Shown piece after piece: positions 11,329 through 63,808 of a stretch of 64,000 bases of DNA (its first letter is position 1; every line of letters starts with the position of its first letter). Source of the stretch: an uncultured Gammaproteobacteria bacterium (lineage in GTDB: Bacteria; Patescibacteriota; Patescibacteriia; Magasanikbacterales; UBA922); assembly GCA_964435035.1 (NCBI GenBank), contig CAYSXR010000001.1, positions 144,192 to 208,191 on the forward strand, in the 5' to 3' direction. A model generated the notes under the pieces. The model ran no database searches and was not told the origin of the DNA. It saw only the letters and a program-made list of their open reading frames with translations. The position numbers and the translations under genes were made by a program.

Positions 11329-11895
11329 ATGAGGAGGGGAGCAGCAATCTTTATTTTAATTGGATTGTTTTTTGTGTTTGTAATTAGTGGAGTGGTGTAT
11401 TTTTTGAGTCTCGAAAATACGCGCACTTCTGAAACAACGGACGTCCCAGTTGTCTCGGGAGTTCTTCCACAAGGTGTGCGTATTATCGAAAAAGAAGGTA
11501 ATAGAATATTGAAGGACGAACGAGCGGGTTATGAGATGGAGTTACCAGAAGAAATTAGTGCCGTTGTTGGTAAAGATAATACAGTCTTATTTTATTCCGA
11601 TAGCAGTATTCCCGACTATGGGACAGTACTTGGAGGTATCGGTATTTTTGATAGGGATAATTTATCTCTCGAAGATTGGGTTGCGCGGTTGCACAAAGAA
11701 ACGTTTTTGGTCTTCTTTGAAGAAAGAGAAAGAATTGACAAGGGTGATTTAGAAATTATAAAAATTAAGATGGATGGACCAGGTGAACCTTATGACTATT
11801 TTTTTCTGCATAAGGATAAAATTATTAACGTATCGTGGGTCACAGGGGATTACCTGGATACCTATATTCAAAATATAGTTTTTATGAACTTATAA
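11329..11895 (+). CDS. hypothetical secreted/membrane-anchored protein
   Basis: 188 aa; N-terminal hydrophobic segment AAIFILIGLFFVFVISGVVYFL. Confidence 0.45.
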   Translation: MRRGAAIFILIGLFFVFVISGVVYFLSLENTRTSETTDVPVVSGVLPQGVRIIEKEGNRILKDERAGYEMELPEEISAVVGKDNTVLFYSDSSIPDYGTVLGGIGIFDRDNLSLEDWVARLHKETFLVFFEERERIDKGDLEIIKIKMDGPGEPYDYFFLHKDKIINVSWVTGDYLDTYIQNIVFMNL

Positions 11896-15324: not shown

Positions 15325-15353
15325 TTGACAAATTGTCTCACGTGTGATACTAT
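15325..15353 (+). promoter_or_regulatory. sigma70-like extended -10 promoter TTGACA-N17-(TGa)TACTAT
   Basis: exact TTGACA, 17-bp spacer containing TG at -15/-14, -10 TACTAT; same architecture as three other cassettes in the window. Confidence 0.45.
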
Positions 15354-15430: not shown

Positions 15431-15772
15431 ATGGCTCGTTTGATCGACATGTACTTCACTGCCCCCGTGGTCAACCACTGGACTACCTTCTACGAGAAGG
15501 CGTTCATGGGGGAGCTGATCATGGTTTACATCCATGGGGTGGGACGTCGCTGGGTACTTCTCCAGGACTTTCGCAGTAACGAGGAGGCTAAGAAACTTGA
15601 GTTCAGGGTACAGATTGTGCCGGAGCCGGGTAAAAAAAACCGGGACTCGATACCAAACAGCTGGTTTACTGGCACCTACTCCTGGGAGACCAACGATGGT
15701 TACCTCAAACTGCCGTCGGTTATGCGGCCATTGCCGTCGGTTATCCTCTCAAGCTGGATCAACCACGCCTGA
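15431..15772 (+). CDS. hypothetical protein in a mildly GC-elevated islet
   Basis: 113-aa ORF, GC visibly higher than flanks; no recognisable family; a longer overlapping ORF in another frame makes the call uncertain. Confidence 0.3.
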   Translation: MARLIDMYFTAPVVNHWTTFYEKAFMGELIMVYIHGVGRRWVLLQDFRSNEEAKKLEFRVQIVPEPGKKNRDSIPNSWFTGTYSWETNDGYLKLPSVMRPLPSVILSSWINHA

Positions 15773-16647: not shown

Positions 16648-16794
16648 TTAAATTAGTTCATAGCTAATAGCAAGAAAGTTCATAGGAAAATACAAATTCG
16701 TATTTCCATTGGCTATCCATCTATTGGCTATGAACTACGAGAGACGCGAATATGATATACTAAGTAAACATAAAAGTCAAGTAAACTTTATCTC

Positions 16795-29610: not shown

Positions 29611-29664
29611 TAAACAGGTATATATTTTTGAAAAAAACTGAAATATGATATACTACTTGCATCT

Positions 29665-32838: not shown

Positions 32839-32898
32839 TAATACTTTGTTCTCATTGAATAAAACATAAAAAATTGGTATTCTAAGAATACTAATTCT

Positions 32899-34866: not shown

Positions 34867-34941
34867 ACAAATATGTTATTGCACTAGTATACCATAACAT
34901 ACCCCGTGGGTGGGGTATGTTATGGTAGGTGTAGGGTGTGA

Positions 34942-36492: not shown

Positions 36493-36566
36493 CGGGCTGG
36501 ACGGGACTCGAACCCGCAACTTCTGCCGTGACAGGGCAGTGCTCTAACCAGTTGAACTACCAGCCC
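36493..36566 (-). tRNA. tRNA-Asp (anticodon GTC)
   Basis: hand-folded on minus strand: acceptor GGGCTGG/CCAGCCC, anticodon stem CTGCC/GGCAG with loop CTGTCAC, T-arm GCGGG-TTCGAGT-CCCGT, discriminator G; 74 nt. Confidence 0.8.
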
Positions 36567-36607
36567 GCTTATTGTTTTACACATGTAAGGAAAAGGCCTT
36601 GGATGAC

Positions 36608-36727
36608 TTATTTCTGTGCGGTTGCAGCAGCCTTACGTACGCGCTTCAACTTTTTTTTGTCGCGTGTAACTTTGTCCACTTTCCATTGTGCCTTCATTTT
36701 ATTTCTCATTTTTTTGCGCATTCCCAT
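36608..36727 (-). CDS. hypothetical very basic 39-aa peptide (MGMRKKMRNKMKAQWKVDKVTRDKKKLKRVRKAAATAQK)
   Basis: not in ORF track (too short); minus-strand TTGACA-N17-TATTAT promoter-like sequence about 60 nt upstream; ribosomal-protein-like composition but no family recognised. Confidence 0.3.
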   Translation of the reverse strand: MGMRKKMRNKMKAQWKVDKVTRDKKKLKRVRKAAATAQK

Positions 36728-36826
36728 ATGAGGTAAAGATAACCAATTAAATATCTGTGTGAATGAAATATATAATACGTTTTTTTTACACGTTTGTCAA
36801 TATGTAGAGGGTCGTCTACAAAACAA

Positions 36827-36906
36827 AAGACCCTTAGTGTGTCCGGCGCGGCAAGGGAGCGAAGGAGGGGGCGCTCCCGCCATCGCCAAACACACTAAGA
36901 GTCTTT
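36827..36906 (-). terminator. large GC-rich hairpin + T-run, probable terminator of infC-rpmI-rplT operon
   Basis: 16-bp imperfect inverted repeat AAGACCCTTAGTGTGT / ACACACTAAGAGTCTT enclosing a nested GGGAGCG..CGCTCCC stem; on minus strand followed by TTTTGTTTTG. Confidence 0.5.
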
Positions 36907-37151
36907 AAGTGTTAGTATACAAAATAGTACCATCCCAGAATAAGACGTGTCAAGGGTAATTAAGCGAAAAAAATTCTTATTTTTAGGGGATTGTAAACTG
37001 TATACTAATTAGATAGTAAAAAATTTTTAAGTATTAGTTTATGTAATAATTTCACCGGGAATATTACGTATGAAGTGTTGCTGTGTATAAAATAATCCCC
37101 CAGAATGGGGGATTAGATACTGTTGAGGAATTTTGTACTGCTTGTAAGTGT

Positions 37152-37496
37152 TTAGGAAACTGATTTTACTATTGCAGCAAATACTTTTGGATGTTTTTCA
37201 GCAATCTGTGAGAGTACTTTGCGGTCAAATACCATATCATTCTTTTTCAATGCTCCCATGAATTTACTATAAGACATTCCGTGCTTGCGGATTTCAGCAT
37301 TGATCTTTACCTGCCATAGATTTCGTGTCGTACGTTTTTTTACTCGACGATCACGATATGCGTGTGCTCCAGCTTTAGTATCTGCAGTTTTTGCAAGTTT
37401 CAATAATTTTTTGCGACCACCTTCAAATCCTTTCACCCGTTTGAGAATGTTTGAACGTCTTTTGGCATGTCGCATTCCTCGTTTTACTCGTGGCAT
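37152..37496 (-). CDS. rplT: 50S ribosomal protein L20
   Basis: MPRVKRG...RRxxxLKxxKGFxG...AHxYRDRRxKKR hallmark L20 N-terminus; infC-rpmI-rplT order. Confidence 0.9.
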   Translation of the reverse strand: MPRVKRGMRHAKRRSNILKRVKGFEGGRKKLLKLAKTADTKAGAHAYRDRRVKKRTTRNLWQVKINAEIRKHGMSYSKFMGALKKNDMVFDRKVLSQIAEKHPKVFAAIVKSVS

Positions 37497-38647: not shown

Positions 38648-38776
38648 ACTTCCTCCTTAAAAAAGTTGTATTGGCAGTGCCACGAGGGCGCGCTGTGCTT
38701 AGTAATGTTGCTGCCACGTAAAGTCGCTACGCTCCTACGTGGCACTCAAAGGCGCTCTGAGAATCGCGCCTTTTCG

Positions 38777-39173
38777 TGGAGATGCCGGGAGTCGAACCCG
38801 GGTCTAGACGGGTTACCCCGATACTCTACATGTGTATCGATGTTTGGTGTTTCGCATACGAATATGAAACATCGAAAAATATCGCATGCTATCGCATGAA
38901 TGGTTTCAACTAACTTCCATACGAACAAAGTTAGTCTACGCTCGAACTAGGGTTGGCACCGTGGATCCACCATCGAGTATCGTGGGTACGATGGTCGTAG
39001 TGATTTAGGCTACAACAGAAGCAAAGCTAGGCATACTGAAAGCTTTCGCTACAGTGTTTTTAGCTCGCTCGAACAAGTTTGCACTTGTGGAATTGCCTAT
39101 TTGTTACAGAGACAGGCACTCTGACATGCATATACAAGATAACAGAATCCATCTATCGAAGCCTGTCATCCCC
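38777..39173 (-). ncRNA. ssrA: tmRNA (ssrA)
   Basis: minus-strand 5' GGGGATGACAGGCTTCGA... and 3' ...GACCCGGGTTCGACTCCCGGCATCTCCA tRNA-like domain (acceptor GGGGATG/CATCTCC with one G-U); immediately downstream of smpB; ~397 nt; followed by a GGCGC..GCGCC + TTT terminator. Confidence 0.75.
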
Positions 39174-42070: not shown

Positions 42071-42185
42071 TAAATTCAAAACTTAAATCTCAAAATTCAA
42101 AACTGGAATTCAAAATTCCGGGAGATGAAAGTTTTAAGATTTAAGTTATAGTTTTGAACTTTGAGTTTTACATTTTGAATTTAAT
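42071..42185. repeat. AT-rich palindromic repeat (caaaactt/aagttttg family), full-length copy
   Basis: about 115-bp imperfect inverted repeat; related shorter copies at 51671-51726 and 61795-61845. Confidence 0.6.
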
Positions 42186-42220
42186 ATATTATTTCCATCA
42201 CTATTTAAACTTAGTCTACT

Positions 42221-46240: not shown

Positions 46241-46416
46241 CATTTTGATATAGAGAAGAAAAATCACTGATAGCAGTCGGTGATTTTTTGTTTTTTTAAG
46301 GTGTTTGGGCTAGAAATGTGCTAAAAAGTATGAGAGTAGTCAAAAGGGGCTACACCCTTTACTTTTTGTCAAAATTTGCATAAAGTACGTTAATGCTTAT
46401 TGTGGCAGGGGTATAC

Positions 46417-46445
46417 TTGACAAAAAGGTATAAATATGCTATAGT
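46417..46445 (+). promoter_or_regulatory. extended -10 promoter TTGACA-N17-(TGc)TATAGT
   Basis: exact -35, 17-bp spacer with TG at -15/-14, -10 TATAGT; AT-rich host-like context immediately upstream of the first high-GC gene. Confidence 0.55.
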
Positions 46446-46655
46446 ACTGCGTTATTTCAAAAGCCCTACATAGGTCTTCGAAATAGCAATCCAGGGGCCC
46501 CATCAGAGAGGATATGTGTCCCTTCTGATGGAGTCCCTGGTCTAGGAGCTCCCACTGTGGCCCGTTCGGGCAATAGTGAGAGCCTTAGGCTCATTACAAT
46601 CGAAGAAGCTAGAACACGTGCCCCTATGAAAGGGGTGTAAACGAGGAGATCAGAA

Positions 46656-48104
46656 ATGATTGACCGCAACAAGAAGAGCAACAAGAAGAGCACGCCCGTG
46701 AAGGGCGGCGCTGCGGCGAACCCGCAGGCGATGGCAACCGTGGCGTCTCACAAGGACGACACGGCTCAGATCGATGTGGTGGTCGAGACCAATCCCGAGG
46801 CCGACAAGGTCGAGGGTGAGGTCAAGGCCGATGAAGAGGCGAAGGTCGAAGAGACCGTCGCCACCGCCCCGACCGAGAACGTCGAGAAGAGCGAGGAGCC
46901 GGCCGTTGTGGTCGACCCCGAGCCCGAGCTCGAGCAGAAGCGGAACTTCCGTAAGGAAGACCTCCGCCTCCGGTACAACGACAACCCGCAGGTGCTGCTC
47001 ACCTCCGCGGATCTCAGCGAAGAGGACAAGGTCCTCATCGGCGAGATCGCGAGCGAGCAGAACCAGGTCGTCCGCGACTATGCCGCGCTGGCACAGGAGC
47101 TGACCGACGAGAAGGACCAGCTCGAGCAGAAGCTCGACGCGACCAACTCCAAGCTGGGGAACGTCACCAACCTCATCGCGACCACGGTCAAGGAGACCGT
47201 GGGACAGGTGGACAAGGAGACGTCGGCCTTGATCGAAGGTCTGAAGATCGAGATCGAGGGCGTCATCGGCAAGGGTAACGGCGTGAAGAACGCCGTCACG
47301 AAGATCGGGGACGATGTCAACAAGGACATCGGCTCGCTCAAGGGTCAGGTCAACGCCAACGCCAAGTCGGTCAACGACAAGGTCGATGGGATGGCCGCGA
47401 TGCTCGGGAAGATCGACGAGAAGATCTCCGAGATCAAGTCCCCGCCGCCCCCGCAGCAGCCGCCGGCTCAGTCCAGCACCACCCCGTCCTCCGGATCCTC
47501 CGGGTGGCCGTGGGTCGTGGCCGTGGGCATCTTGCTCGCGGCCGTGATCGCGGTCTTCCTCCTGAACAAGGATGTGAAGATCGAGGTCCAGGTGCAGCAG
47601 CCGGCGGTGAACACCGTGAAGGGTGTGGTGCCGCCGGTGGTGGACAACGCTCTCGGGGTGACCTCGCAGCAGGTGACCCCGGGTGGACCGGGGAATCCGA
47701 TCGTGCCCACGGTGGTCGGTGCCACGTCCGAGGATCCCTGCAAGGGGAAGGTCGGTGGGGAGCTCGGGTCGTGTGTCCTTCAGCTGGAGAAGTTCCGGCC
47801 GAAGGGGTTCACTGATGCGCACTGGAACACGGTCGTCGAGACCTTCCAGAACGTCATCATGGTCCCCTTGAGCGTTCCGTTCAAGGACATCAAGCACCAC
47901 GACAAGGCCATCGAGCACAACATGAGGAAAGACGCGGCACTGCAGGCGTGCGTCGACGCATACGTCTTGAAGACGGATGATGTCGAGTCGAACGTCCGGT
48001 GTCAGCGGGCGGTCGATTGTCTGTTCACTTCGGTGGACGAGGCAGCACAGTGCTACATGACGCATACGCGCTCGATCACGGGCGTTTTGGTCACTGTCAA
48101 CTGA
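46656..48104 (+). CDS. high-GC island gene A: membrane protein with cytoplasmic acidic/coiled-coil N-domain, one TM, extracytoplasmic C-domain with 6 Cys
   Basis: GC about 63-66% with strong GC3 bias; SD GAGGAG; TM WPWVVAVGILLAAVIAVFLL preceded by PPPPQQPP linker. Confidence 0.65.
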   Translation: MIDRNKKSNKKSTPVKGGAAANPQAMATVASHKDDTAQIDVVVETNPEADKVEGEVKADEEAKVEETVATAPTENVEKSEEPAVVVDPEPELEQKRNFRKEDLRLRYNDNPQVLLTSADLSEEDKVLIGEIASEQNQVVRDYAALAQELTDEKDQLEQKLDATNSKLGNVTNLIATTVKETVGQVDKETSALIEGLKIEIEGVIGKGNGVKNAVTKIGDDVNKDIGSLKGQVNANAKSVNDKVDGMAAMLGKIDEKISEIKSPPPPQQPPAQSSTTPSSGSSGWPWVVAVGILLAAVIAVFLLNKDVKIEVQVQQPAVNTVKGVVPPVVDNALGVTSQQVTPGGPGNPIVPTVVGATSEDPCKGKVGGELGSCVLQLEKFRPKGFTDAHWNTVVETFQNVIMVPLSVPFKDIKHHDKAIEHNMRKDAALQACVDAYVLKTDDVESNVRCQRAVDCLFTSVDEAAQCYMTHTRSITGVLVTVN

Positions 48105-48159
48105 ACCTCAACCCAACTAGTCCGACCTCCCTCGGGAGGTCGGACACAGGAGAACAGAC

Positions 48160-49095
48160 ATGAAGCAGCTCGTCGCGAAGATCGTGGTTTATTACATCGT
48201 ACTTCTCTCGGCGTCGGCCTTCGGCTCGACGCCGAACCCCGGTGACCAGTTCGACCTGATCCAGGGAGGGATCCCGGCGAAGGTCGAGGTCACGCAGCAG
48301 GAGATCAAGGCGATGGACACGTCCATCGACCAGCTCCTGAAGCGCACCGGCGGTCTCCTCAAGAAGGACGCCGAGCTCAAGAAGGAGCTCGAGGACCTCA
48401 AGAAGGAGCTCGAGGACCTCAAGAGCAAGCTCGACAAGGTGGTGAAGCCGGGTGATCTCACGGTCATCCGAGTGGATCTGGGAAGGTTGTGGACGCAAGT
48501 CAACAACCATGGACAGCGCCTCACCGAGCTCGAGCAGGACGTCGAAGATCTGAAGAGGAGCGACAAGGCTCAGGACGATCGACTCGGTGATCACGACCAG
48601 AAAATCGAGGACATCAACAAGCGCCTCGATCGAGGTCTCGGAGTGAAGTTCGGCATCGGAGCCTATGGCGTCTACGGGACGCAAGGCTCGATCAACGGTG
48701 GAGCTTCGGCTCGGCTGAGGATCCCGCTGTCCGGTGGATGGCAAGCGATCGTCAATGGCGGAGTCGGCGGCAACCATCAGGGAGCTTCAGGATTCGCCGA
48801 TCTGTCGGTCGGCTACCAGTTCGCGAGCGGCATCTACCTGGGGGCAACCCTCGGTATCGACGCCAACTGCGACGGTATGTGCACCAGGCTCCTCACGGAG
48901 ATCTGGGGCGCAGGTCCCGACATCGGCTACCTGTCCGACGATGGACTCTTCATCCGGGCTCGTGTGCTCTTCGGGAGCGAGTGGATCAAGGGTCCGACGA
49001 TGCAGATCGAGTACCCGGATCGTACGGTCTTCAAGACCGACGAGTCCCGGGAGTTCGGCATCTCGGCTTTGATCCAGCTCGGTCACGAGTTCTAG
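48160..49095 (+). CDS. high-GC island gene B: secreted coiled-coil protein with Gly/aromatic-rich C-terminal domain ending in Phe (OMP beta-barrel-like)
   Basis: signal peptide; KKELEDLKKELEDLKSKLDK repeats; C-terminal alternating hydrophobic pattern and terminal ...LGHEF; followed by GGGGAGTgtctctACTCCCC hairpin. Confidence 0.6.
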   Translation: MKQLVAKIVVYYIVLLSASAFGSTPNPGDQFDLIQGGIPAKVEVTQQEIKAMDTSIDQLLKRTGGLLKKDAELKKELEDLKKELEDLKSKLDKVVKPGDLTVIRVDLGRLWTQVNNHGQRLTELEQDVEDLKRSDKAQDDRLGDHDQKIEDINKRLDRGLGVKFGIGAYGVYGTQGSINGGASARLRIPLSGGWQAIVNGGVGGNHQGASGFADLSVGYQFASGIYLGATLGIDANCDGMCTRLLTEIWGAGPDIGYLSDDGLFIRARVLFGSEWIKGPTMQIEYPDRTVFKTDESREFGISALIQLGHEF

Positions 49096-49346
49096 ACTTC
49101 AAGATTCGGGGAGTGTCTCTACTCCCCGGACCCCTCACCTCGCCGACTTCAAGGCAGAAGGGATAAGACAATGAGACAAACACTCGAGTAAACGGCGTGG
49201 TCGCACAACGCGGCCCCCAATACTGGAGCATGGGCGATATTTCGAAAGAAATGTCGCCCCTCGCACAGCGTATATCAGTCTCTGGTATGCGATGACGAGA
49301 AAAGCATCTCACGTAAATCCCGACTAAATCGGGACACGTGACAAGC

Positions 49347-49375
49347 TTGACAAACGAGAGTATTTATGCTATACT
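49347..49375 (+). promoter_or_regulatory. extended -10 promoter TTGACA-N17-(TGc)TATACT
   Basis: same cassette as at 46417 and 63780; lies in an AT-rich spacer inside the high-GC block, about 310 nt upstream of gene C start. Confidence 0.55.
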
Positions 49376-49685
49376 AAGCTGTTACAAAATAAAGAAGTGC
49401 CATGGGAAATCTCGATGTAGTCGGGGTATCTATGGTAGATCGTCATGCACTGCATGGTGGTCCATTGAACCTTACAATATATGCGAAATGTATAAAAAGC
49501 TTGAAAGGCTAGAAAGGCCGGAAAGGCTTGAAATGCTAGAGAACGTATCTTGTGACGTGAAGAAAGAAATTTTCAATAAGAATTTTTTCTTAGCGTCACG
49601 AGGAGTTCTCAGGCGTGAAAACTTCTCGTGTGGTACACGAGGAAGCAACAACAAAACCCCGATTGAATCGGGGAGGAGAAGAGTC

Positions 49686-51452
49686 ATGAAGAAGTTCAAC
49701 AAGTTCCTGTTCGTCGTCATGTTCATCTCGTTCGTCGCGGCCATCACGGGCTGCGCCGATCACGGTGGCGAGACGGTCGTCGTCAAGGGTGACGATGGGG
49801 AGAGCGTCAAGCTCTGCCCCGAGGAGCATCAGTGCTCCTCGGCCGAGTTCTGCAACTCGCAGGGTCTCTGCGTCATCCCCGGTGCCAACGGCACCAACGG
49901 CGAGGACTTCGAGCGATGCTCGAATAGTCGTGGTGACTGTGTCGGTAACGAGCTCTGCAACTCGCAGGGCGTGTGTGTGCTCGAAGGTCCGCAAGGGCCG
50001 GCGGGGGAGTCCTGTACCGTGTCGACGAAGGTCGACGGGTGCTTCTTCCTCTACTGTGGCGCAAGCGTCACGGAGATCTGCGACGGCGAGGACGGTGTGT
50101 CCTGCACGGTCGCAGGGCAGCCGGACGGCAGCGCTCAGGTCGAGTGCTCGGACGGTTCGTTCGCGACCATCCTCCCCGGACAAGACGGCGAGGACGGTCT
50201 CAACGGCACGAGCTGCACGGCCTCGACGGTCAAAGGTTGCCTCGTGGTGACCTGCGGAACGCAGTCGACGGAGATCTGCCCGGAGGATCTTCCGGATCCC
50301 GAGCCGGTCGACGGCTGCCAGAAGGACTCGGACTGCACGGACGGCAGCGAGTGCACCAACGACATCTGCGATCTCAACACCGGCACCTGCCGGTACGTGT
50401 CGCAGGTGTGTGATGACGGCGTCGCCTGCACCAACGACTGGTGTGACACGAACGGCTACTGCCGTTCGACCGCGGACAATGATCAGTGCAGCGGCGGCGA
50501 CTTCTGCTTGCCGACCGGTTACTGGTTTTGGTCCTCGGCGGTGGGTTCTGAGGAACTCGCTGACGGAGGCTGTTACGAGTGCCGCTGGGACTCTGATTGT
50601 GCCGACGGCGACGCGTGTACGGTCGACACCTGCGACGCGGGTGTTTGCAAGAAGGAAACGCGCGAGTGCCCCACGGGTGCGACGTGCGTCGAGTACTCGA
50701 GCAACTACTACGACGACTCGGAGTGGAACTACGTGTGCCAGGACAATCCGTCGTGCAGCAACAACAGCCAGTGCGACGACGGCAAGTACTGGACGACGGA
50801 TGCGTGCGTGGCCGGGGAGTGTGTCTACACCCAGGTGTCGTGCAACGACAACAACGCATGCACCGTGGACACGGTGAACTCGAGTGGGCAGTGCACCTAC
50901 GCCCAGATCTCGTGCGACGATGGCAAATCCGCCACGGTCGACACGTGCTCTGCGAATACGGGGTGCGTACACACGCCGGTGAACACCGGCTGCGAGCACG
51001 ATCTCGATTGCGATGACGTCGACGGTACGACCACGGACCTGTGCGAGGACAACGGGAGCTGTACACATACTCCCAATGCCCAGTGCAAGTCCCTGACGGT
51101 CAAGGTCGGCTGGGCCATCCTGTGGTCGCGCGGTCCCGAGATCGGAACCACCAATGTCCCGATGGGCAACTGGCGTAGCTGCGAGGAAGACGAGGCGGAG
51201 AACTGCCGTACCATGTCGTGGTGCGGTGACGACATCGTGGAGTTCAATGTTCAGCAGATGCCGAACGTGGCAGGTGCCGACTGGCTCGTGAAGAACGAGA
51301 AAGGCGACAGCCCTTGCACGTCGAACGCAGATGCGACCTTGAACTACACGCCCGCTGATCTCTTCGTCGGGGCGACGCCGGTGCAGAAGGGCTGTTCGCT
51401 CTTCTGCGACCCGAACGGGTACACCAACTACACCTGCGATTCCGCGGAGTAG
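49686..51452 (+). CDS. high-GC island gene C: Cys-rich lipoprotein (about 589 aa, many CxxDxCD / CDDG repeats)
   Basis: ORF track extends to 49338 but that stretch is AT-rich leader containing the promoter; GGAGGAG SD before ATG at 49686; lipobox-like FVAAITGC then ADHGG; more than 60 Cys. Confidence 0.6.
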   Translation: MKKFNKFLFVVMFISFVAAITGCADHGGETVVVKGDDGESVKLCPEEHQCSSAEFCNSQGLCVIPGANGTNGEDFERCSNSRGDCVGNELCNSQGVCVLEGPQGPAGESCTVSTKVDGCFFLYCGASVTEICDGEDGVSCTVAGQPDGSAQVECSDGSFATILPGQDGEDGLNGTSCTASTVKGCLVVTCGTQSTEICPEDLPDPEPVDGCQKDSDCTDGSECTNDICDLNTGTCRYVSQVCDDGVACTNDWCDTNGYCRSTADNDQCSGGDFCLPTGYWFWSSAVGSEELADGGCYECRWDSDCADGDACTVDTCDAGVCKKETRECPTGATCVEYSSNYYDDSEWNYVCQDNPSCSNNSQCDDGKYWTTDACVAGECVYTQVSCNDNNACTVDTVNSSGQCTYAQISCDDGKSATVDTCSANTGCVHTPVNTGCEHDLDCDDVDGTTTDLCEDNGSCTHTPNAQCKSLTVKVGWAILWSRGPEIGTTNVPMGNWRSCEEDEAENCRTMSWCGDDIVEFNVQQMPNVAGADWLVKNEKGDSPCTSNADATLNYTPADLFVGATPVQKGCSLFCDPNGYTNYTCDSAE

Positions 51453-51670
51453 TCGTACCCACAAACATTTCGTGTAAAAGCTTTGAGTAGCCTAGCTACC
51501 AGACTCAAAGTTCAATCAACGTAGCGGGAGGGGGCACAAGCGTTCATCTGAATTGCGCAAGCGATTCAGTGACGAGTGCCTCCCTCCCATTCCAACATAT
51601 CTTTATCAAAATTCAGAACTCAGATTACAGTGAGAGACTAGTGAGTATTGGTAGAGAGATGTGGGGATGG

Positions 51671-51726
51671 AAAATTCAAAACTTAAAACTTAAAACTCAA
51701 AATTTAGATTTAAGTTGTGAGTTATT
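51671..51726. repeat. AT-rich palindromic repeat (short copy) inside high-GC island
   Basis: AAAATTCAAAACTTAAAACTTAAAACTCAAAA + TTTAGATTTAAGTTGTGAGTT; matches arms of the 42071-42185 copy. Confidence 0.55.
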
Positions 51727-51794
51727 ACAAACCCTTTCCATCATTATGATGGTTTCAATTCCCCTCAACCGCGACGACAGAAATGTCACGCGCG

Positions 51795-51821
51795 GAAAAA
51801 ACCCGCGCATGCGGGTTTTTT
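51795..51821. terminator. bidirectional hairpin terminator AAAAAACCCGCGCATGCGGGTTTTTT
   Basis: perfect GC stem flanked by A6 and T6. Confidence 0.6.
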
Positions 51822-51913
51822 AAATTCCATTACCTCGGGTATATCGTATAATGATGGTATATCTATGGTAGAGGAATTCTACACGCCAGTTCACAAAAAC
51901 CAGGAGGGGACAC

Positions 51914-52651
51914 ATGTTGGGTATGACGTTTCGTTTGTTTGTTTTCTGTCTCACCGTGTTCACCGCCGCATGCATCGAGGATATGCGGCGGGAGGAAGCG
52001 TCCATGGTCCAGGTCGATACGTCGACTGGCATCATGGATATGGTGGAGGAAGTCAAAGACGTACCAGATTCACGGGTCCGTGATCGGTATGATATCGAAT
52101 TTCCTCCTACAGCCGACGAGTGTGTCGTCGATGAATTCATCGCAGAGGGAAGCCCTTGCGATGATGGCGATGCATGCACGATCGATGTCTGTATCCAGGG
52201 CATGTGTCGTAATCGAGCTATCGACTGCGACGACGGAAATCCCTGGACGGATGACGAGTGCATCGTCGACACTGGGGCGTGCTCCAGTGTACATCGGGTG
52301 ACTCATTTCACCGTTCGCGCGGAGCGTCCGGGAAAGGTGAAGCTTTGGTATGGGAATCACACCGAGCCAGAGACCTATCCCATGAACTCGAGCTTCGAGA
52401 TCCAGAAGATGGATCTCTGCGTCGAGAACCGTGTGCTCACGCTCGCGGTAGAGGACGAAGAGTTCCCGGGAACCTACTGGGGTTGTAACCCTGGCCTTCC
52501 TTCGAAGAGGGAACTCGCAGTCGAGATCGACGGGGTGGACACGCCCGGTTATTTCGCTGCGGATCTCGGATGGGAGGTGCCCAACTCTGCGTGTGGTGGG
52601 AAGGGAGAGGGTGACCTCTACTTCTTGCGGGCGCAACTCGCATGTGACTGA
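51914..52651 (+). CDS. high-GC island gene D: Cys-rich lipoprotein (245 aa), paralog of C and E
   Basis: signal + lipobox-like FTAAC; CDDGDACTIDVCIQGMCRNRAIDCDDGNPWTDDEC repeats; C-terminal CNPGLPSK domain shared with gene E. Confidence 0.6.
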   Translation: MLGMTFRLFVFCLTVFTAACIEDMRREEASMVQVDTSTGIMDMVEEVKDVPDSRVRDRYDIEFPPTADECVVDEFIAEGSPCDDGDACTIDVCIQGMCRNRAIDCDDGNPWTDDECIVDTGACSSVHRVTHFTVRAERPGKVKLWYGNHTEPETYPMNSSFEIQKMDLCVENRVLTLAVEDEEFPGTYWGCNPGLPSKRELAVEIDGVDTPGYFAADLGWEVPNSACGGKGEGDLYFLRAQLACD

Positions 52652-52998
52652 TGACCGGGTGTCTCGCGAAGGATAGGATGGCGTATACGCTATGCTGTCC
52701 ACCTTCGCGAGCACCACTAATTCAACAAATAGAATTATATTGACAAAATACTCTTTTCCTGATATGTTGATACGATTGTATCTACGCATATCGGATATCT
52801 AGAGAGGTATCTGGTATGCGCCACTGGAGAATCATTCTCAAGTGTGTATGTTCATTATAATCACATAAGTTTTTTGTTCAGCTAGAGGATGGGTGCAGAT
52901 AGAGGTATATGTAACATATCTTGTATCGATAGCCACCCTCTAGCTGAGACACAGTGTCACTGCTGGAGTTCAACGGCCTCACAACGGAGGAAGGCCAA

Positions 52999-55041
52999 AT
53001 GCGTCTGAAGAACAACAACAACCGGATGTTCATCATCACGGTTGCCCTCGCCATGGGGTTCATGGCGGCGTGCACGGAACACGGCGGCGACGAGCCGATC
53101 GTGGTCGTGATGAAGGCGGACCTCGACCTCGACGAGGTCCCCAACAACGTCGACAACTGCCCGGGGGACAACAACCCCGATCAGTTGGACACCGACGGCG
53201 ACGGCATGGGCGATGCGTGCGACAACGACGTCGACGGCGACGGGGTCTTGAACCCCGCCGACAACTGCCCCGACAACTTCAACCCCGACCAGGCGAACCT
53301 CGACAAGGTCCTGGCCGACAGCGGCAACGTCACCGTGGTCGCGGATCTCTTCGGAGACGTCTGCGACAACGACGACGACGGCGACGTGGTCTGCGACCCC
53401 TGGCTCGGCGTGGACGGGTGGGAAGAATTCCATCCCGGTCAGGGCGAGACGTGTCAGGGCGAGGACAACTGTCCCGACGTCGCCAACGCCGACCAGGCGA
53501 ACCTCGACAAGGACTTCGAGGGCGACGTCTGCGACAACGACGTCGACGGCGACGGCGACCTCAACGGCGCAGACAACTGCCCGCTCGTGACCAACGCCGA
53601 CCAGGCAAACCTGGATCGGGACGACTGGGGCGACGCCTGCGACACCGACGACGACAACGACAGCTTCTGCGACGAAGCTGCCCCCGTCTCGATGCCGCGA
53701 AATGCGCCCGCGATGCCCCTCTGCGAGGGCGAGGACAACTGCCCCCGCTTCAAGAACGCGGGACAGGAAGACATGGACGAGGACGGCATGGGCGACGTCT
53801 GCGACGACGACTGCGACGGGGACCTCTACCCCGAAGCGTCGCCCTGGGATTTCCCCAACCTGTCGTGCTTCGTGTATTGCAATCCGGAAGGTCCGGGAAC
53901 CGAGTGCGACGACGCGAACACGTGCACCACGGACACCTGCAACGGGCAGGGCGTTTGCGAGTACGTGTTCACGCAGTCCGAGACGTGCGAATGCGTCTTG
54001 GACTCCGACTGCGAGCCGACCGACGCCTGCGTCACCGAGATGGCGTGCGTGGAAAACACGTGCGTCGAGACCGGATGGAAGGTCCTGACCGACGGGGACA
54101 ACTGCACCATCGACACCTGTGATCCCTCGACCGGCGTGGTCACCCACGTCGAGAAGGACTGTGGTGGGGACCTCTGCGGAGGAGGCCTCTCGTGTAACCG
54201 CATGACCGGAGAGTGCAGCACACCCGTGCCGCAAATTCCGATCAACGACAGCAACGCCTGCACCACCGACGCGTGCGATCCCGAGACCGGCGTGGTCACC
54301 CACGTCGCGATCGTCTGCGACGATGGGAACGCATGCAACGGCACCGAGACGTGCAACCCGGCTTCCGGGTGCGTCGCGGGTACGCCGCTCACGTGCGATG
54401 ACGGAAGCGTCTGCACGATCGACAGTTGTTCGGCAAACACCTGCCAACACGTGGCGGTGACGACGAACGACAACAACATGTGCACCACCGACACCTGCGA
54501 TCCCGAGATGGGGGTGCAGCACACGGCGGTGGTGTGCAACGACGTGAACTCCAACACCACCGACACCTGCGATCCGGCGACGGGTTGCGTGCACACGCCG
54601 ACGGGGAACTGCACGGTCAACGCGGATTGCAACGACAGCAATCCCCTGACCTACGACACCTGCGTCGCGCTCGTCTGCCAACATGTGGAAGGTGTCCGCG
54701 TGCAGGTCTCGTCGACCGACACGTCGGAGACCTGGCAGGTCAATTTCTACTACAACGGTACGACGATCTCCGGCAACCTGCCCTTCGACGGGACCTTGCC
54801 GAAGACGCTCGCATGCAGCTGGGGCGCCGACATCGCCGTCAACCGTCCGAGCACGAACTTGTTCTTGGACTGCAACCCGGGGTTCCCCTCGAAGTCCACC
54901 CTGACCGTCATGGTCAATGGTGTCACGAAGGCGAACGACTTCCAGGTTCGTTCGCAGGCATGCGACGGCGCTCCGCCGGGCAACCTGTGGCTCTCCGACG
55001 AGAGCGGTGACAACGACCTGGGATGCCCCGCGGCACCCTAG
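52999..55041 (+). CDS. high-GC island gene E: lipoprotein with ~7 thrombospondin type-3 (Ca-binding) repeats and ~8 CTxDxCD Cys-rich repeats
   Basis: SD GGAGG then ATG at 52999 (ORF track starts 52954); lipobox-like FMAAC followed by TEHGGDEP (compare gene C ADHGGETV); TSP3 consensus DxDxDGxxDxxDNCPxxxNxDQ repeated from about 53150 to 53830; C-terminal CNPGFPSK domain. Confidence 0.65.
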   Translation: MRLKNNNNRMFIITVALAMGFMAACTEHGGDEPIVVVMKADLDLDEVPNNVDNCPGDNNPDQLDTDGDGMGDACDNDVDGDGVLNPADNCPDNFNPDQANLDKVLADSGNVTVVADLFGDVCDNDDDGDVVCDPWLGVDGWEEFHPGQGETCQGEDNCPDVANADQANLDKDFEGDVCDNDVDGDGDLNGADNCPLVTNADQANLDRDDWGDACDTDDDNDSFCDEAAPVSMPRNAPAMPLCEGEDNCPRFKNAGQEDMDEDGMGDVCDDDCDGDLYPEASPWDFPNLSCFVYCNPEGPGTECDDANTCTTDTCNGQGVCEYVFTQSETCECVLDSDCEPTDACVTEMACVENTCVETGWKVLTDGDNCTIDTCDPSTGVVTHVEKDCGGDLCGGGLSCNRMTGECSTPVPQIPINDSNACTTDACDPETGVVTHVAIVCDDGNACNGTETCNPASGCVAGTPLTCDDGSVCTIDSCSANTCQHVAVTTNDNNMCTTDTCDPEMGVQHTAVVCNDVNSNTTDTCDPATGCVHTPTGNCTVNADCNDSNPLTYDTCVALVCQHVEGVRVQVSSTDTSETWQVNFYYNGTTISGNLPFDGTLPKTLACSWGADIAVNRPSTNLFLDCNPGFPSKSTLTVMVNGVTKANDFQVRSQACDGAPPGNLWLSDESGDNDLGCPAAP

Positions 55042-55253: not shown

Positions 55254-55355
55254 GTCATTCCGAGCGAGTGCACCCGAGCCGAGGAATCTTTCCTGTATAA
55301 GACCATGTAAGAAAGATTCCTCGACTCCCTCGGAGACTCGGTCGCTCGGAATGAC
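55254..55355. repeat. hairpin repeat element copy A (termini GTCATTCCGAGCGA ... TCGCTCGGAATGAC)
   Basis: perfect 14-bp terminal inverted repeats plus inner GAGGAATCTTTCCTG/CAGGAAAGATTCCTC stem; two further copies at 61105-61246 and 61583-61719. Confidence 0.7.
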
Positions 55356-55416
55356 TATCGTCACTTTTTCTTTTTTTAATTTCCCCCTTGCTTGTGATAT
55401 ACTTATCTAGAATTTT

Positions 55417-61104: not shown

Positions 61105-61246
61105 GTGTCATCCCGAGGGAGGAGTGCATCCGACGATTCGAGGGATCTTTCCTGCATAAGGCTGATTAGGAAAAATGTATTTAAAGCTTAGTAAGGACTT
61201 GGTAGGAAAGATTCCTCGACTCGGGTGCACTCGCTCGGAATGACAC
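61105..61246. repeat. hairpin repeat element copy B (degenerate left arm, intact right arm ...TCGCTCGGAATGAC)
   Basis: right arm CTCGACTCGGGTGCACTCGCTCGGAATGAC nearly identical to reverse complement of copy A left arm; lies 42 bp upstream of GIY-YIG gene. Confidence 0.6.
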
Positions 61247-61287: not shown

Positions 61288-61566
61288 ATGAAAACATACT
61301 ATGTGTATATTATGTCGAGCATTAATCAAACACTCTATGTCGGTATAACCAATAATTTATTCCGTAGAGTTTTTGAACATAGGATGAAACTCAATGAAGG
61401 TTTTACAGAAAAATATCAGATATATAAATTAGTATATGCTGAATACTATACAAATGTGCAGGAGGCAATACGTCGTGAAAAACAAATCAAAAAGTGGCGT
61501 CGAGAGAAGAAAATCAAATTGATTGAAAAAGATAATCCCGATTGGGTGGATCTCGCAAGGAATTAA
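61288..61566 (+). CDS. GIY-YIG nuclease family small protein
   Basis: 92 aa; MKTYYVYIMSSINQTLYVGITNNLFRRVFEH = GIY...YVG motif; paralogous in style to 38375..38647. Confidence 0.75.
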   Translation: MKTYYVYIMSSINQTLYVGITNNLFRRVFEHRMKLNEGFTEKYQIYKLVYAEYYTNVQEAIRREKQIKKWRREKKIKLIEKDNPDWVDLARN

Positions 61567-61582
61567 TGGTGTGATTGGTATT

Positions 61583-61719
61583 GTCATTCCGAGCGACCGA
61601 GTCTTCGAGGGAGTCGAGGAATCTTTCCTGTATAGTATTCTGTAAAAAAATGTAACTATAGTTTGGTAAATACTTTGCAGGAAAGATTTCTCGACTCGGG
61701 TGCACTCACTCGAAATGAC
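61583..61719. repeat. hairpin repeat element copy C (GTCATTCCGAGCGACCGAG... / ...CACTCGAAATGAC)
   Basis: left arm matches reverse complement of copy A right arm almost exactly; starts 17 bp after GIY-YIG stop. Confidence 0.65.
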
Positions 61720-61794
61720 AGTGAATAGCTCGGAATCAGGTCACAGAAGTTGCAAATATGCTTGGATCAAGTATCATTACCTTGAAGAATAAGA

Positions 61795-61845
61795 AGTTTT
61801 AAATTTTTAGTTTCAGTTTTGAACTTTGAGTTTTAAGTTTTGAGA
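61795..61845. repeat. AT-rich palindromic repeat, half copy
   Basis: AGTTTTAAATTTTTAGTTTCAGTTTTGAACTTTGAGTTTTAAGTTTTGAG nearly identical to right arm of 42071-42185 copy. Confidence 0.55.
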
Positions 61846-61854
61846 TAGATATCT

Positions 61855-63705: not shown

Positions 63706-63726
63706 ATATAACATGCTTGAAAGTGC

Positions 63727-63754
63727 AAAAAAACGCTTATTTTAGCGTTTTTTT
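63727..63754 (+). terminator. rho-independent terminator AAAAAAACGCTtattttAGCGTTTTTTTG
   Basis: hairpin with flanking A/T runs right after 61855..63705. Confidence 0.6.
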
Positions 63755-63779
63755 GTTTTAAGTTACATGGATTGAACAC

Positions 63780-63808
63780 TTGACAAAAGTATATAGATGT
63801 GGTATAGT
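63780..63808 (+). promoter_or_regulatory. extended -10 promoter TTGACA-N17-(TGg)TATAGT
   Basis: same cassette as at 46417/49347, about 45 nt upstream of the GT4 start. Confidence 0.55.

Follow-up and report, generated by a model that had tools for sequence, protein, structure and literature searches.

Bacterial mRNAs for abundant envelope proteins can carry structured 5′ leaders that stabilise them, as in the 5′ UTR of E. coli ompA, and 5′ stabiliser stem-loops are likewise known from aprE and ermC of B. subtilis. Acquired genomic islands contrast sharply with their host in composition and differ from it in translation-initiation signals, the usual xenogeneic case being AT-rich in a GC-rich host. 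Among promoters, the extended −10 class of Firmicutes sigma-A/sigma-70 combines TRTGnTATAAT with TTGACA at a distance of 17 bp, and the described core elements comprise a C at the 3′ end of UP, the −35, an AT-tract beside the −35, TRTG, the −10 and a YRY or YRR start element (PMC12641261). As regards translation, the anti-Shine-Dalgarno (anti-SD) motif is missing in about half of Parcubacteria (PMC9297842). Here we analysed a window of DNA, the whole stretch being 64,000 nt long, from a Candidate Phyla Radiation (CPR) bacterium of the Magasanikbacteria kind, which is present in sequencing runs SRR12762283/85/87.

A first-pass annotation of this window had reported four near-consensus extended −10 promoters, at 15325, 46417 (P_A), 49347 (P_C) and 63780 (the GT4 promoter). 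All four are present, together with a fifth exact match that had been overlooked, at 52740 (P_E; TTGACAaaatactcttttccTGaTATGTT) (Table 1). The motif, TTGACA-N14-TGN-TANNNT, has 14 specified bases; the N12 given before TGn in the annotation's title was a miscount, whereas the 17-bp spacer given in its text is right. Against an expectation of 0.07 exact matches in dinucleotide shuffles, none of 100 of which reached five, the five observed are all intergenic (P ~1.6e-5), on the forward strand and pointing at a gene. Sites matching at least 12 of the 14 specified bases are also all intergenic, and none falls within the coding DNA that makes up 57 kb (89%) of the window, so that the motif is far from being as frequent inside coding regions as upstream of genes.

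Table 1 Promoters, leaders and genes of the window, with their positions and main features.
Feature	Position	Strand	Sequence or description
Promoter 15325	15325–15353	+	TTGACAaattgtctcacgtgTGaTACTAT; TTGACA-N14-TGa-TACTAT
Orphan ORF113	15431–15772	+	113 aa; GC3 0.72; without SD; near tRNA-Lys
Extended −10 only promoter	16753–16761		native
Extended −10 only promoter	29646–29654	+	TGaTATACT, without TTGACA; before PpsA-like gene
Extended −10 only promoter	32875–32883		native
Extended −10 only promoter	34886–34894	−	native
Full-consensus promoter	36800–36772	−	native; TTGACA-N17-TATTAT; ahead of 39-aa basic ORF and tRNA-Asp
Full-consensus promoter	36953–36924	−	native; TTGACA-N18-TACTAT; ahead of hairpin RNA
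Full-consensus promoter	39360–39331	−	native; TTGACA-N18-TATACT; upstream of tmRNA
Promoter P_A	46417–46445	+	TTGACAaaaaggtataaataTGcTATAGT; spacer 17 bp
P_A −35	46417–46422	+	TTGACA
P_A TG	46437–46438	+	TG
P_A −10	46440–46445	+	TATAGT
Predicted leader of A-B operon	46451–46655	+	~205 nt
Gene A	46656–48104	+	482 aa; internal TM segment; GC3 0.88; own SD
Gene B	48160–49095	+	311 aa; signal peptide, coiled coil, Gly-rich C-terminus; GC3 0.81; own SD
Promoter P_C	49347–49375	+	TTGACAaacgagagtatttaTGcTATACT; TTGACA-N14-TGc-TATACT
Predicted leader C	from 49381	+	~305 nt; conserved blocks and hairpins
Gene C	49686–51452	+	lipoprotein; Dicty_CTDC cysteine-rich repeats; SD GGAGGAG; GC3 0.77 (measured over the longer ORF 49338–51452)
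Candidate gene D −10	51847–51852		TATAAT; poor −35
Gene D	51914–52651	+	Dicty_CTDC lipoprotein; GC3 0.65; SD AGGAGGGG
Promoter P_E	52740–52768	+	TTGACA-N14-TGa-TATGTT; 231 nt upstream of third large high-GC gene
Predicted leader E	from 52774	+	~225 nt; strong hairpin CGCAUA...UAUGCG
Gene E	52999–55041	+	lipoprotein; thrombospondin type 3 and Dicty_CTDC repeats; SD GGAGG; 88% G+C at third positions
Extended −10 only promoter	55395–55403		native
Terminator	63725–63756		precedes GT4 promoter
GT4 promoter	63780–63808	+	TTGACAaaagtatatagatgTGgTATAGT; TTGACA-N14-TGg-TATAGT
GT4 glycosyltransferase	ATG 63851	+	MRIAMIGQKGIPAIYGG...

The anatomy of the five sites is uniform. Each has a perfect TTGACA (6/6), a spacer of exactly 17 bp and TG at −15/−14, and the −10 hexamers (TATAGT twice, TATACT, TACTAT and TATGTT) all keep T-12, A-11 and T-7; the TRTG form of the extended −10 occurs at 15325, 46417 (as TATG), 49347 and 63780. 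A C usually precedes the −35, an A-tract opens the spacer, and a pyrimidine-purine step lies 5–6 nt past the −10 at all five, so that the positions common to the sites are the described core-promoter elements (PMC12641261). Transcription is predicted to start at A15359, G46451 (cGt), G49381 (tGt), G52774 and G63814; these starts, 6 nt past the −10, lie slightly short of the usual 7–8 nt. The similarity of spacer sequences remarked on at first pass reduces to the known TRTG motif and the A-tract by the −35. In hexamers, spacing, TG, the C before and the A-tract after the −35, and the Y-R(-Y) start element, the sites thus match Firmicutes sigma-A promoters; unlike those, they belong to a CPR host in which only a minority of promoters has the full −35 form and the extended −10 alone, almost leaderless, is commoner.

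Most native genes of the window have a minimal extended −10 promoter 11–34 nt from the start codon and lack an SD. The TGaTATACT previously noticed before the PpsA-like gene is one of these (Table 1), and the gene is nearly leaderless because this element lies only 11 nt before its ATG. The full consensus serves four of the five high-GC3 units versus one of ~26 native units (Fisher P ~8e-4), and SD sequences precede all five island genes A–E versus 2 of ~40 native genes (P ~2e-5). Whereas the first-pass annotation assigned two of its promoters to high-GC genes, four of the five sites serve high-GC3 units, ORF113 included; the fifth does precede, as had been stated, an ordinary low-GC native gene, that of a GT4 glycosyltransferase. 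Gene D, with a weaker candidate promoter only, is the sole island unit without a full consensus. Furthermore, TGnTAnnnT is wholly absent from island coding sequences, as against 2.1 per kb in native ones, and the dedicated upstream promoters are therefore plausibly the only initiation signals of the island genes. A literature search covering the promoters of Magasanikbacteria or of the CPR, their leaderless transcripts and GC-rich cysteine-rich genes returned nothing specific, and there is no rpoD among the ORFs examined in the window.

We then compared the sites with five or six related assemblies (L004–L010 range, of which L006 and L010 may be one lineage). Promoters of the same geometry occupy the same positions, that of A in all relatives, that of C in four (L005, L006, L009 and L010) and that of E in two. 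P_A is 97–100% identical in L005, L006, L007 and L010 and 83% identical in L004, whereas the DNA spacer upstream of it is only 43–49% and protein A 45–78% identical. In the P_E orthologues of L009 and L010, the −35, the TG and T-A---T are kept while the spacer differs. Beyond these loci, a closely related extended pattern, TTGACAAA-N10-TATGCTATAnTA-N4-GTTAY, stands before unrelated genes on 52 metagenome contigs. These include orthologues of the GT4 gene (MRIAMIGQKGIPA / MKIAMIGQKGIP), which lie behind the same consensus at eight metagenome loci from several distinct lineages, with GC3 down to 0.10 at some. The unrelated flanks, the conservation in situ and the recurrence of one consensus before unrelated genes together argue for selection of a strong native promoter type, which was one of two options offered at first pass. 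The five sites are thus probably independent in-situ copies of the host's housekeeping (sigma-70/sigma-A type) promoter in near-optimal form; their likeness would stem from separate selection of each site for one optimum of RNA polymerase, whose contacts coincide with the shared positions. Sigma-A recognition and promoter strength, like the start sites and any stabilising or regulatory role of the leaders, are read here from sequence and conservation. The 15325 site is the least certain of the five, as a homologue search with ORF113, which follows it after a 72-nt structured leader, matched only that ORF itself.

Between promoters and genes lie leaders that the annotation had passed over in placing the promoters directly upstream of genes A and C; the start codons are in fact 211 and 311 nt away, and the intervening sequence is ~50% GC and structured. 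Leader A would form a stem from its predicted 5′ end (GUUAUUUC/GAAAUAGC), a long hairpin (46491–46540), a third one of compound form and, immediately ahead of the SD (GAGGAG), a CCCC-loop-GGGG hairpin. It is nearly invariant in six orthologous loci, with 83–89% identity in full-length comparisons. Between 57 and 59 of its predicted pairs are kept in five or six sequences and only one pair shows a two-sided change, covariation being weak because the sequence barely varies. Rfam, including permissive searches, gave no credible family for any leader, only chance-level hairpin matches. A scan of viral contigs with the leader-A core found no match, and there is therefore no sign of phage origin. 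These leaders resemble those of ompA, aprE and ermC in that a putatively strong promoter is followed by a stem-loop that begins close to or at the predicted 5′ end, by more hairpins, a small one of them before a strong SD, and by a gene for a secreted or surface protein. They differ in having neither sequence relation nor Rfam family, and in a primary sequence whose conservation is far tighter than simple stabilisation would call for; a stabilising role of the leaders is putative.

Several other accounts of the promoters can be set against this evidence. That AT-rich hexamers came together by chance between the genes has a negligible probability: the intergenic DNA is AT-rich, and weaker promoter-like matches (9/12) are only ~1.5 times commoner than in shuffles, but the exact matches far exceed expectation, are all oriented to genes and keep their core elements in orthologues. 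The other option offered at first pass, a portable module in which a promoter cassette, perhaps with the first leader bases, was copied or moved to several places, is very improbable. P_A, P_C and the GT4 promoter are 70–82% identical over 33 nt, the spacer (12 free positions) and the downstream 20 nt are somewhat more alike than random intergenic DNA (P ~0.004 each), and TATGCTATAnTA-N4-GTTAy is common to the A- and C-type promoters of several lineages. However, the 33-nt identity consists mostly of the 14 specified bases, TRTG and the A-tract, over the 20 nt upstream the five sites resemble one another no more than random intergenic stretches do (P=0.58), no direct or inverted repeats are shared around the sites, and the island ORFs contain no integrase, transposase or other mobility domains. 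Moreover, P_A, P_C and P_E are each kept at their own orthologous position, the spacer of P_E diverges freely around constant core elements, and the leaders of A, C and E are unrelated to one another. An ancient duplication of promoter and leader start between A and C, both of which carry TATGCTATAnTAnnnnGTTAy, is possible. It is unlikely that the conserved spacers and flanks are operator sites and that the motif partly reflects a shared transcription factor rather than sigma-A alone. Orthologues hardly vary in the P_A spacer and the −45 to −37 region, where GGGGTATAC precedes the −35; an inverted TTGACAAAAAG copy lies 55 nt upstream (11-nt perfect inverted repeat CTTTTTGTCAA/TTGACAAAAAG; 46362–46372 and 46417–46427), and upstream of P_C a conserved block contains the palindrome GTATATCAG-tct-CTGGTATGC. 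Yet the five sites share nothing beyond the known core elements, L004, L006 and L007 have not kept the inverted copy, and a regulator gene was not identified among those of the island. The near-invariance of the P_A spacer and flanks nevertheless suggests an additional constraint, for example a regulator site, beyond plain sigma-A recognition. Regulation of this kind is compatible with a housekeeping promoter and does not exclude it.

The remaining account concerns the genes rather than the motif: they may be recent imports from a high-GC donor that came to lie behind, or recruited, native promoters, the motif marking the host side of the integration junctions. We consider this quite improbable. 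Third-position GC of 0.65–0.88 in the island versus ~0.30 in native genes, and the SD sequences on one set and their near-absence from the other, are the kind of contrast seen in acquired islands; repeat proteins of the Dicty_CTDC and TSP3 kinds are frequent among high-GC bacteria, a genome of 69% GC encodes one of the nearer gene C homologues, and ORF113 adjoins tRNA-Lys. Unlike the usual xenogeneic case, however, this island is GC-rich in an AT-rich host, and it is syntenic in related Magasanikbacteria-like assemblies with the same promoters and leaders and with GC3 of 0.85–0.90. In a Magasanikbacteria genome further removed, a comparable cluster of Dicty_CTDC genes (GC3 0.70–0.74) sits beside native GT4, GIY-YIG and Wzy genes. 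A search of 5.8 billion proteins found only four homologues of gene A, all with GC3 of 0.85–0.90 and in the same kind of locus, and homologues of gene C share repeats only (31–40% identity); the searches with these two genes found no donor. Nor has composition ameliorated: about 35% of four-fold sites in the island have changed between lineages, about half or more of the changes being G<->C, and GC at these sites is still 0.85–0.89, while in native genes of the same genome pair 47–56% of four-fold sites differ and their GC is 0.28–0.40. The description of the high-GC genes as foreign, in the sense of recent transfer, is thus not supported, with GC3 held at ~0.87 through substantial synonymous turnover, and of the statement that the promoters explain how foreign genes get expressed, the part that stands is that they plausibly supply the sole initiation signal.

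The promoters themselves add little that is new; the unusual part is what they drive, an island of genes for secreted proteins, long resident and extreme in GC3, in an AT-rich CPR genome. Under the housekeeping-promoter explanation, the full −35 version would be reserved for a few units, namely tRNA, tmRNA and small-RNA genes, one conserved GT4 gene and the high-GC3 island. The island package, a promoter followed by a long conserved structured leader (units A, C and E) and a strong SD (all of A–E), may be built for, or at any rate suit, GC-rich mRNAs that are devoid of internal promoter-like sequences and are expressed at a high and perhaps regulated level. As a tentative, wider reading, Magasanikbacteria-type CPR genomes might run two expression regimes, with island GC3 of ~0.9 being actively maintained rather than the fading trace of a transfer. 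The bulk regime would comprise AT-rich genes with extended −10-only promoters, nearly leaderless and without SD; the island regime, fast-evolving genes for secreted and cysteine-rich surface proteins with a full consensus promoter, start element, long invariant structured leader and strong SD. Selection acting on the mRNA or the DNA could uphold GC3, as could a recombination hotspot with GC-biased gene conversion. The nearby promoter-driven hairpin RNA, with its CCCCCUCCUU loop, could be a dedicated regulator of the SD-bearing island mRNAs. A permissive Rfam search of its region (36560–37160) gave chance-level hairpin matches only, its loop region is absent from the loci retrieved for comparison, and at gathering thresholds Rfam recovered only two tRNAs and the tmRNA in the whole window.

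The use of the canonical TTGACA / TRTG / TATAAT architecture by a CPR bacterium, with the full form reserved for few units, is useful for annotation and for designing tools of gene expression in CPR organisms or in their hosts. In a genome of 40% GC whose other genes lack these traits, the surface-protein genes keep GC3 of ~0.9, SD sequences and, for A, C and E, highly conserved leaders, and they do so between lineages in which synonymous sites have for the most part been replaced. If confirmed genome-wide, this would offer a clean natural case for asking whether selection, biased gene conversion or the stability of mRNA holds codon composition off mutational equilibrium, and how an SD-poor bacterium translates a special class of mRNA. 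On 24 distinct metagenome contigs, genes behind the consensus show a weak upward trend in GC3, which is higher in 16 of 24 (P=0.036); the strong high-GC3 cases are four (L021, L029, L045 and L048), and we do not claim a general rule.

An exact-sequence look-up of gene A returned no record, and the C-terminal domains of A–D had no Pfam match at E up to 10. Protein B, whose Gly-rich C-terminus ends in ...LGHEF, was considered as an outer-membrane barrel, but a single-sequence AlphaFold model was uninformative (pLDDT <30 in the C-terminal half). An assembly chimera was rejected as the source of the compositional contrast, as independent Logan and NCBI MAG assemblies, built from different samples, show the low-GC/high-GC junctions again. 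All three gene A homologues whose contig reaches an upstream neighbour adjoin low-GC3 native genes.

The promoter motif TTGACA-N14-TGN-TANNNT was matched exactly five times across the 64-kb window, compared with 0.07 expected from dinucleotide-preserving shuffles. The four sites claimed by the first-pass annotation were all recovered, together with a fifth that it had missed (TTGACAaaatactcttttccTGaTATGTT), which precedes the third of the large high-GC genes; the N12 in its title was a miscount, as TGn is preceded by 14 bases, giving the optimal 17-bp spacer. In a consensus scan of 44-64 kb, the motif sites there ranked top, scoring 11, 11, 11 and 10 of 12, with TG in all. The annotation had named equal frequency in coding DNA as its refutation; instead, sites matching at least 12 of the 14 specified bases of TTGACA-N14-TGnTATAAT were exclusively intergenic, with none in the coding 89% of the window. 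AA immediately 3′ of the -35 element and a pyrimidine-purine step at positions 5-6 past the -10 element were common to the five sites (YRY in four), and C immediately 5′ of the -35 element was present at three.

Promoters, transcription units and intergenic elements, in window coordinates
Feature	Position	Strand	Downstream unit or description	GC at third codon positions	Predicted start
Motif site	15325		113-aa orphan ORF, 15431-15772	0.72	A15359
Motif site P_A	46417		genes A and B	0.88 / 0.81	G46451
Motif site P_C	49347		gene C, 49686-51452	0.77 (over longer ORF, 49338-51452)	G49381
Motif site P_E (fifth match)	52740-52768		gene E, 52999-55041	88% G+C	G52774
Motif site	63780		native GT4 glycosyltransferase, ATG 63851		G63814
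Weak candidate promoter only			gene D, 51914-52651	0.65	
Full -35 promoter	36953-36924	-	hairpin RNA		
Full -35 promoter	36800-36772	-	39-aa basic ORF and tRNA-Asp		
Full -35 promoter	39360-39331	-	tmRNA		
Hairpin RNA	36815-36953 (with its promoter)	-			
39-aa basic ORF	36608-36727	-	MGMRKKMRNKMKAQWKVDKVTRDKKKLKRVRKAAATAQK		
tmRNA	38776-39173	-	predicted tag peptide ANLFERAKNTVAKAFSMPSFASVVA		
Conserved block upstream of P_C	49255-49305		palindrome/hairpin CGTATATCAG-tct-CTGGTATGCG		
10-mer in leader E	52806-52815		CTGGTATGCG		
Conserved block between C and D	51585-51670		CCATTCCAACATATCTTTATCAA...CAGTGAGAGACTAGTG...ATTGGTAGAGAGATGTGGG		
AT-rich repeats	7943-7984, 42072-42201, 51672-51713, 61794-61852	both	AAAACTCAAAACTTAAAA(TTCAAAAC)		
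Repeats, 74-84% identical	55276-55314, 61135-61245, 61611-61720				
Small GIY-YIG gene	61288-61566				

The full consensus preceded four of five high-GC3 units (GC3, GC at third codon positions) but only 1 of the roughly 26 native units (P about 8e-4, Fisher test; transcription-unit counts in the Fisher tests were taken from a simple ORF map). Native genes had GC3 of about 0.26-0.38, as determined by ORF calling with codon-position composition. The island lipoproteins C, D and E contain Dicty_CTDC cysteine-rich repeats, with additional thrombospondin type 3 repeats in E, and no family was assigned to A or B. The promoters are not adjacent to the island genes, although those of A and C had been described as directly upstream; the -10 element lies 211 nt (A), 311 nt (C) and 231 nt (E) from the start codon, and stable hairpins were predicted by folding in all three intervening leaders.

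A search of 5.8 billion proteins returned only four homologues of gene A, of which one is annotated as Candidatus Magasanikbacteria. Their contigs (L004-L007) and two MAG contigs retrieved through the leader core (L009, L010) represent five or six lineages, L006 and L010 being identical in all values and possibly one lineage. Despite their Gammaproteobacteria label, L009 and L010 are syntenic with the window, and the synteny of L004 reaches back to rplT-infC-smpB. Gene A GC3 was 0.85-0.90 in every related lineage, against 0.29-0.43 for the upstream neighbour where the contig covers one (L004, L005 and L006). A promoter of the motif geometry was kept at the A position in all lineages, at the C position in L005, L006, L009 and L010, and at the E position in L009 and L010. 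P_A was 83-100% identical to the window and leader A 83-89% in full-length comparisons (75% in L006, where the alignment is not full length), compared with 43-49% for the stretch separating P_A from the gene upstream of it, the near-identical strain L005 excepted, and 45-78% for protein A among homologues. P_E keeps TTGACA, TG and T-A---T with a spacer that has diverged, the classic footprint left by a working promoter. In L005, the upstream native protein is 100% identical over its aligned C-terminal 212 aa, whereas A is 78% and B 91% identical, indicating that protein A is fast-evolving.

Two side observations concern these contigs. Gene A is hypervariable (window 46656-48104 against L005 1058-2395), suggestive of diversifying selection on this surface-protein locus or of allelic replacement there. 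L009 (CAZMEW010000013.1) and L010 (CAYUTO010000002.1), titled 'uncultured Gammaproteobacteria bacterium', are 75-86% identical to the window; from this identity and the synteny with a Magasanikbacteria-like window, their taxonomic label looks wrong.

The first-pass annotation had left a choice between a portable promoter module and selection for one promoter type. The spacer likeness that it recorded as tatNNatg is real, but amounts to TRTG at -17 to -14 in four of five sites. Similarity modestly above that of random intergenic DNA (P about 0.004 each) was seen at the 12 free positions of the spacer and over the downstream 20 nt, in a test run with the A-tract and start element unmasked, and these known elements at those positions could be the source. 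Signs of a module were missing: over the upstream 20 nt, similarity did not exceed that of random intergenic DNA (P=0.58), the flanks of the window sites had no direct or inverted repeats in common, and no mobility domain was detected in the island ORFs. A more specific pattern for A- and C-type promoters, TTGACAAA-N10-TATGCTATANTA-N4-GTTAY, matched 52 metagenome contigs, a count that is no measure of GTTAY enrichment because GTTAY was imposed beforehand. These matches lie upstream of unrelated genes on mostly low-GC contigs resembling the Candidate Phyla Radiation (CPR); eight, from several distinct lineages, front GT4 orthologues (MRIAMIGQKGIPA / MKIAMIGQKGIP) with GC3 down to 0.10, and leader A was absent from all pattern-matched loci. 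This set of matches fits a lineage-wide sigma-A optimum and not a mobile cassette. Together with the geometry kept in orthologues, the recurrence before unrelated genes bears out selection for one promoter type.

TGnTAnnnT is enriched in intergenic DNA of the window and, without TTGACA, lies 11-34 nt 5′ of several native start codons (16753, 29646, 32875, 34886 on the minus strand, and 55395), a distance implying very short leaders or none; 29646, before the PpsA-like start codon, is the extended -10 that the annotation had noticed. Three minus-strand promoters carry a full -35 element with 17-18-bp spacers before RNA genes or a small ORF, so the consensus is a native signal serving a minority of units. 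The excess of the motif, its placement and orientation, its conservation among orthologues and its island association are all observed; the motif is genuine and its function all but certain; it is a canonical promoter type, not a portable module.

Several features favour a foreign origin of the high-GC island genes. Their composition is atypical, Dicty_CTDC proteins are abundant in high-GC bacteria, and one nearer gene C homologue lies in a 69% GC genome. GGAG/GAGG-type Shine-Dalgarno (SD) sites at normal spacing precede all five genes A-E (46656-55041), compared with 2 of about 40 native genes (P about 2e-5), rplT and infC lacking them. However, homologue searches returned no close donor for A or C, the island is syntenic across the related assemblies above, and the more distant Magasanikbacteria contig L063 holds a comparable lipoprotein cluster (GC3 0.70-0.74) adjoining native GT4, GIY-YIG and Wzy genes, with a TTGACA-N14-TGt-TAAGCT promoter and SD sites. 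The strongest argument against recent transfer lies in the four-fold degenerate sites at which the encoded amino acid is identical. In gene A, 31-36% of these differ when the more distant lineages are compared (10% for near-identical L005), while their GC is 0.85-0.89 in all lineages and at least about half of the changes are G<->C exchanges; in native genes compared within the same pair of genomes, 47-56% differ, GC is 0.28-0.40 and nearly all changes involve A or T. Since a passive foreign composition would decay over such turnover, something maintains the island GC3; the candidates are selection, biased gene conversion and a local mutational regime.

TGnTAnnnT was absent from 6.9 kb of island coding sequence on both strands, compared with 2.1 per kb in native coding sequence, which makes the upstream promoter plausibly the sole initiation signal. 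This is the part that holds of the earlier proposal that the promoter explains foreign gene expression; synteny and GC turnover speak against recent import of the genes. As separate observations, the two native genes with SD sites are at 11329 and 38647 (a GIY-YIG gene), and the same SD split is visible in L063.

By established promoter biology, sigma regions 4.2, 3.0 and 2 would recognise the -35 element, TG and the -10 element, respectively, transcription would start at the purine 6 nt past the -10 element, and high basal strength would be expected. Leader A has a stem starting at the predicted 5′ end, and leaders A and C place a small hairpin just 5′ of a strong SD; in these two respects they resemble known 5′ mRNA stabilisers, a role that they may share. 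Rfam searches of the leaders returned no family match, and leader A is near-invariant among the compared loci, with little variation for covariation. The anti-SD is reported to have been lost in about half of Parcubacteria (PMC9297842). The more interesting lead is this expression context, in which a syntenic surface-protein island keeps its GC3 at about 0.9 and carries SD sites and invariant leaders, inside an SD-poor, AT-rich CPR genome.

Further observations concern neighbouring elements. On metagenome contigs L029 (1273-1660) and L048 (5941-6827), a consensus promoter and leader precede a small gene for a secreted or membrane protein, whose GC3 is 0.93 and 0.83, respectively (neighbours about 0.2-0.5, one in L048 0.63); this arrangement may extend beyond the window's lineage. 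The minus-strand hairpin RNA, behind a TTGACA-N18-TACTAT promoter with TG, forms a near-perfect hairpin of ~90 nt (dG -57.5 kcal/mol, z -9.7) ending in a U-run, without a match in Rfam. Its 10-nt apical loop, CCCCCUCCUU, includes the anti-Shine-Dalgarno core CCUCC, and pairing with SD sites, in the window almost confined to island genes, is speculative. The very basic 39-aa ORF just upstream of tRNA-Asp, also behind a consensus promoter, had no Pfam match and may encode a small ribosome-associated protein. The tag peptide predicted for the tmRNA is unusually long.

The block between C and D, strongly conserved and common to L009 and L010, is preceded by a stem, GCTTTGAGTAG...CTCAAAG; it had no Rfam match and could be an sRNA or 3′-UTR element. 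The second arm of the palindrome in the conserved block upstream of P_C recurs in leader E as part of its main stem. AT-rich repeats occur in native intergenic DNA and in the C-D spacer, so island intergenic DNA looks native. Another repeat of ~40-110 nt lies just past gene E, and its two further copies flank a small GIY-YIG gene, possibly as the termini of a small mobile element with GIY-YIG.
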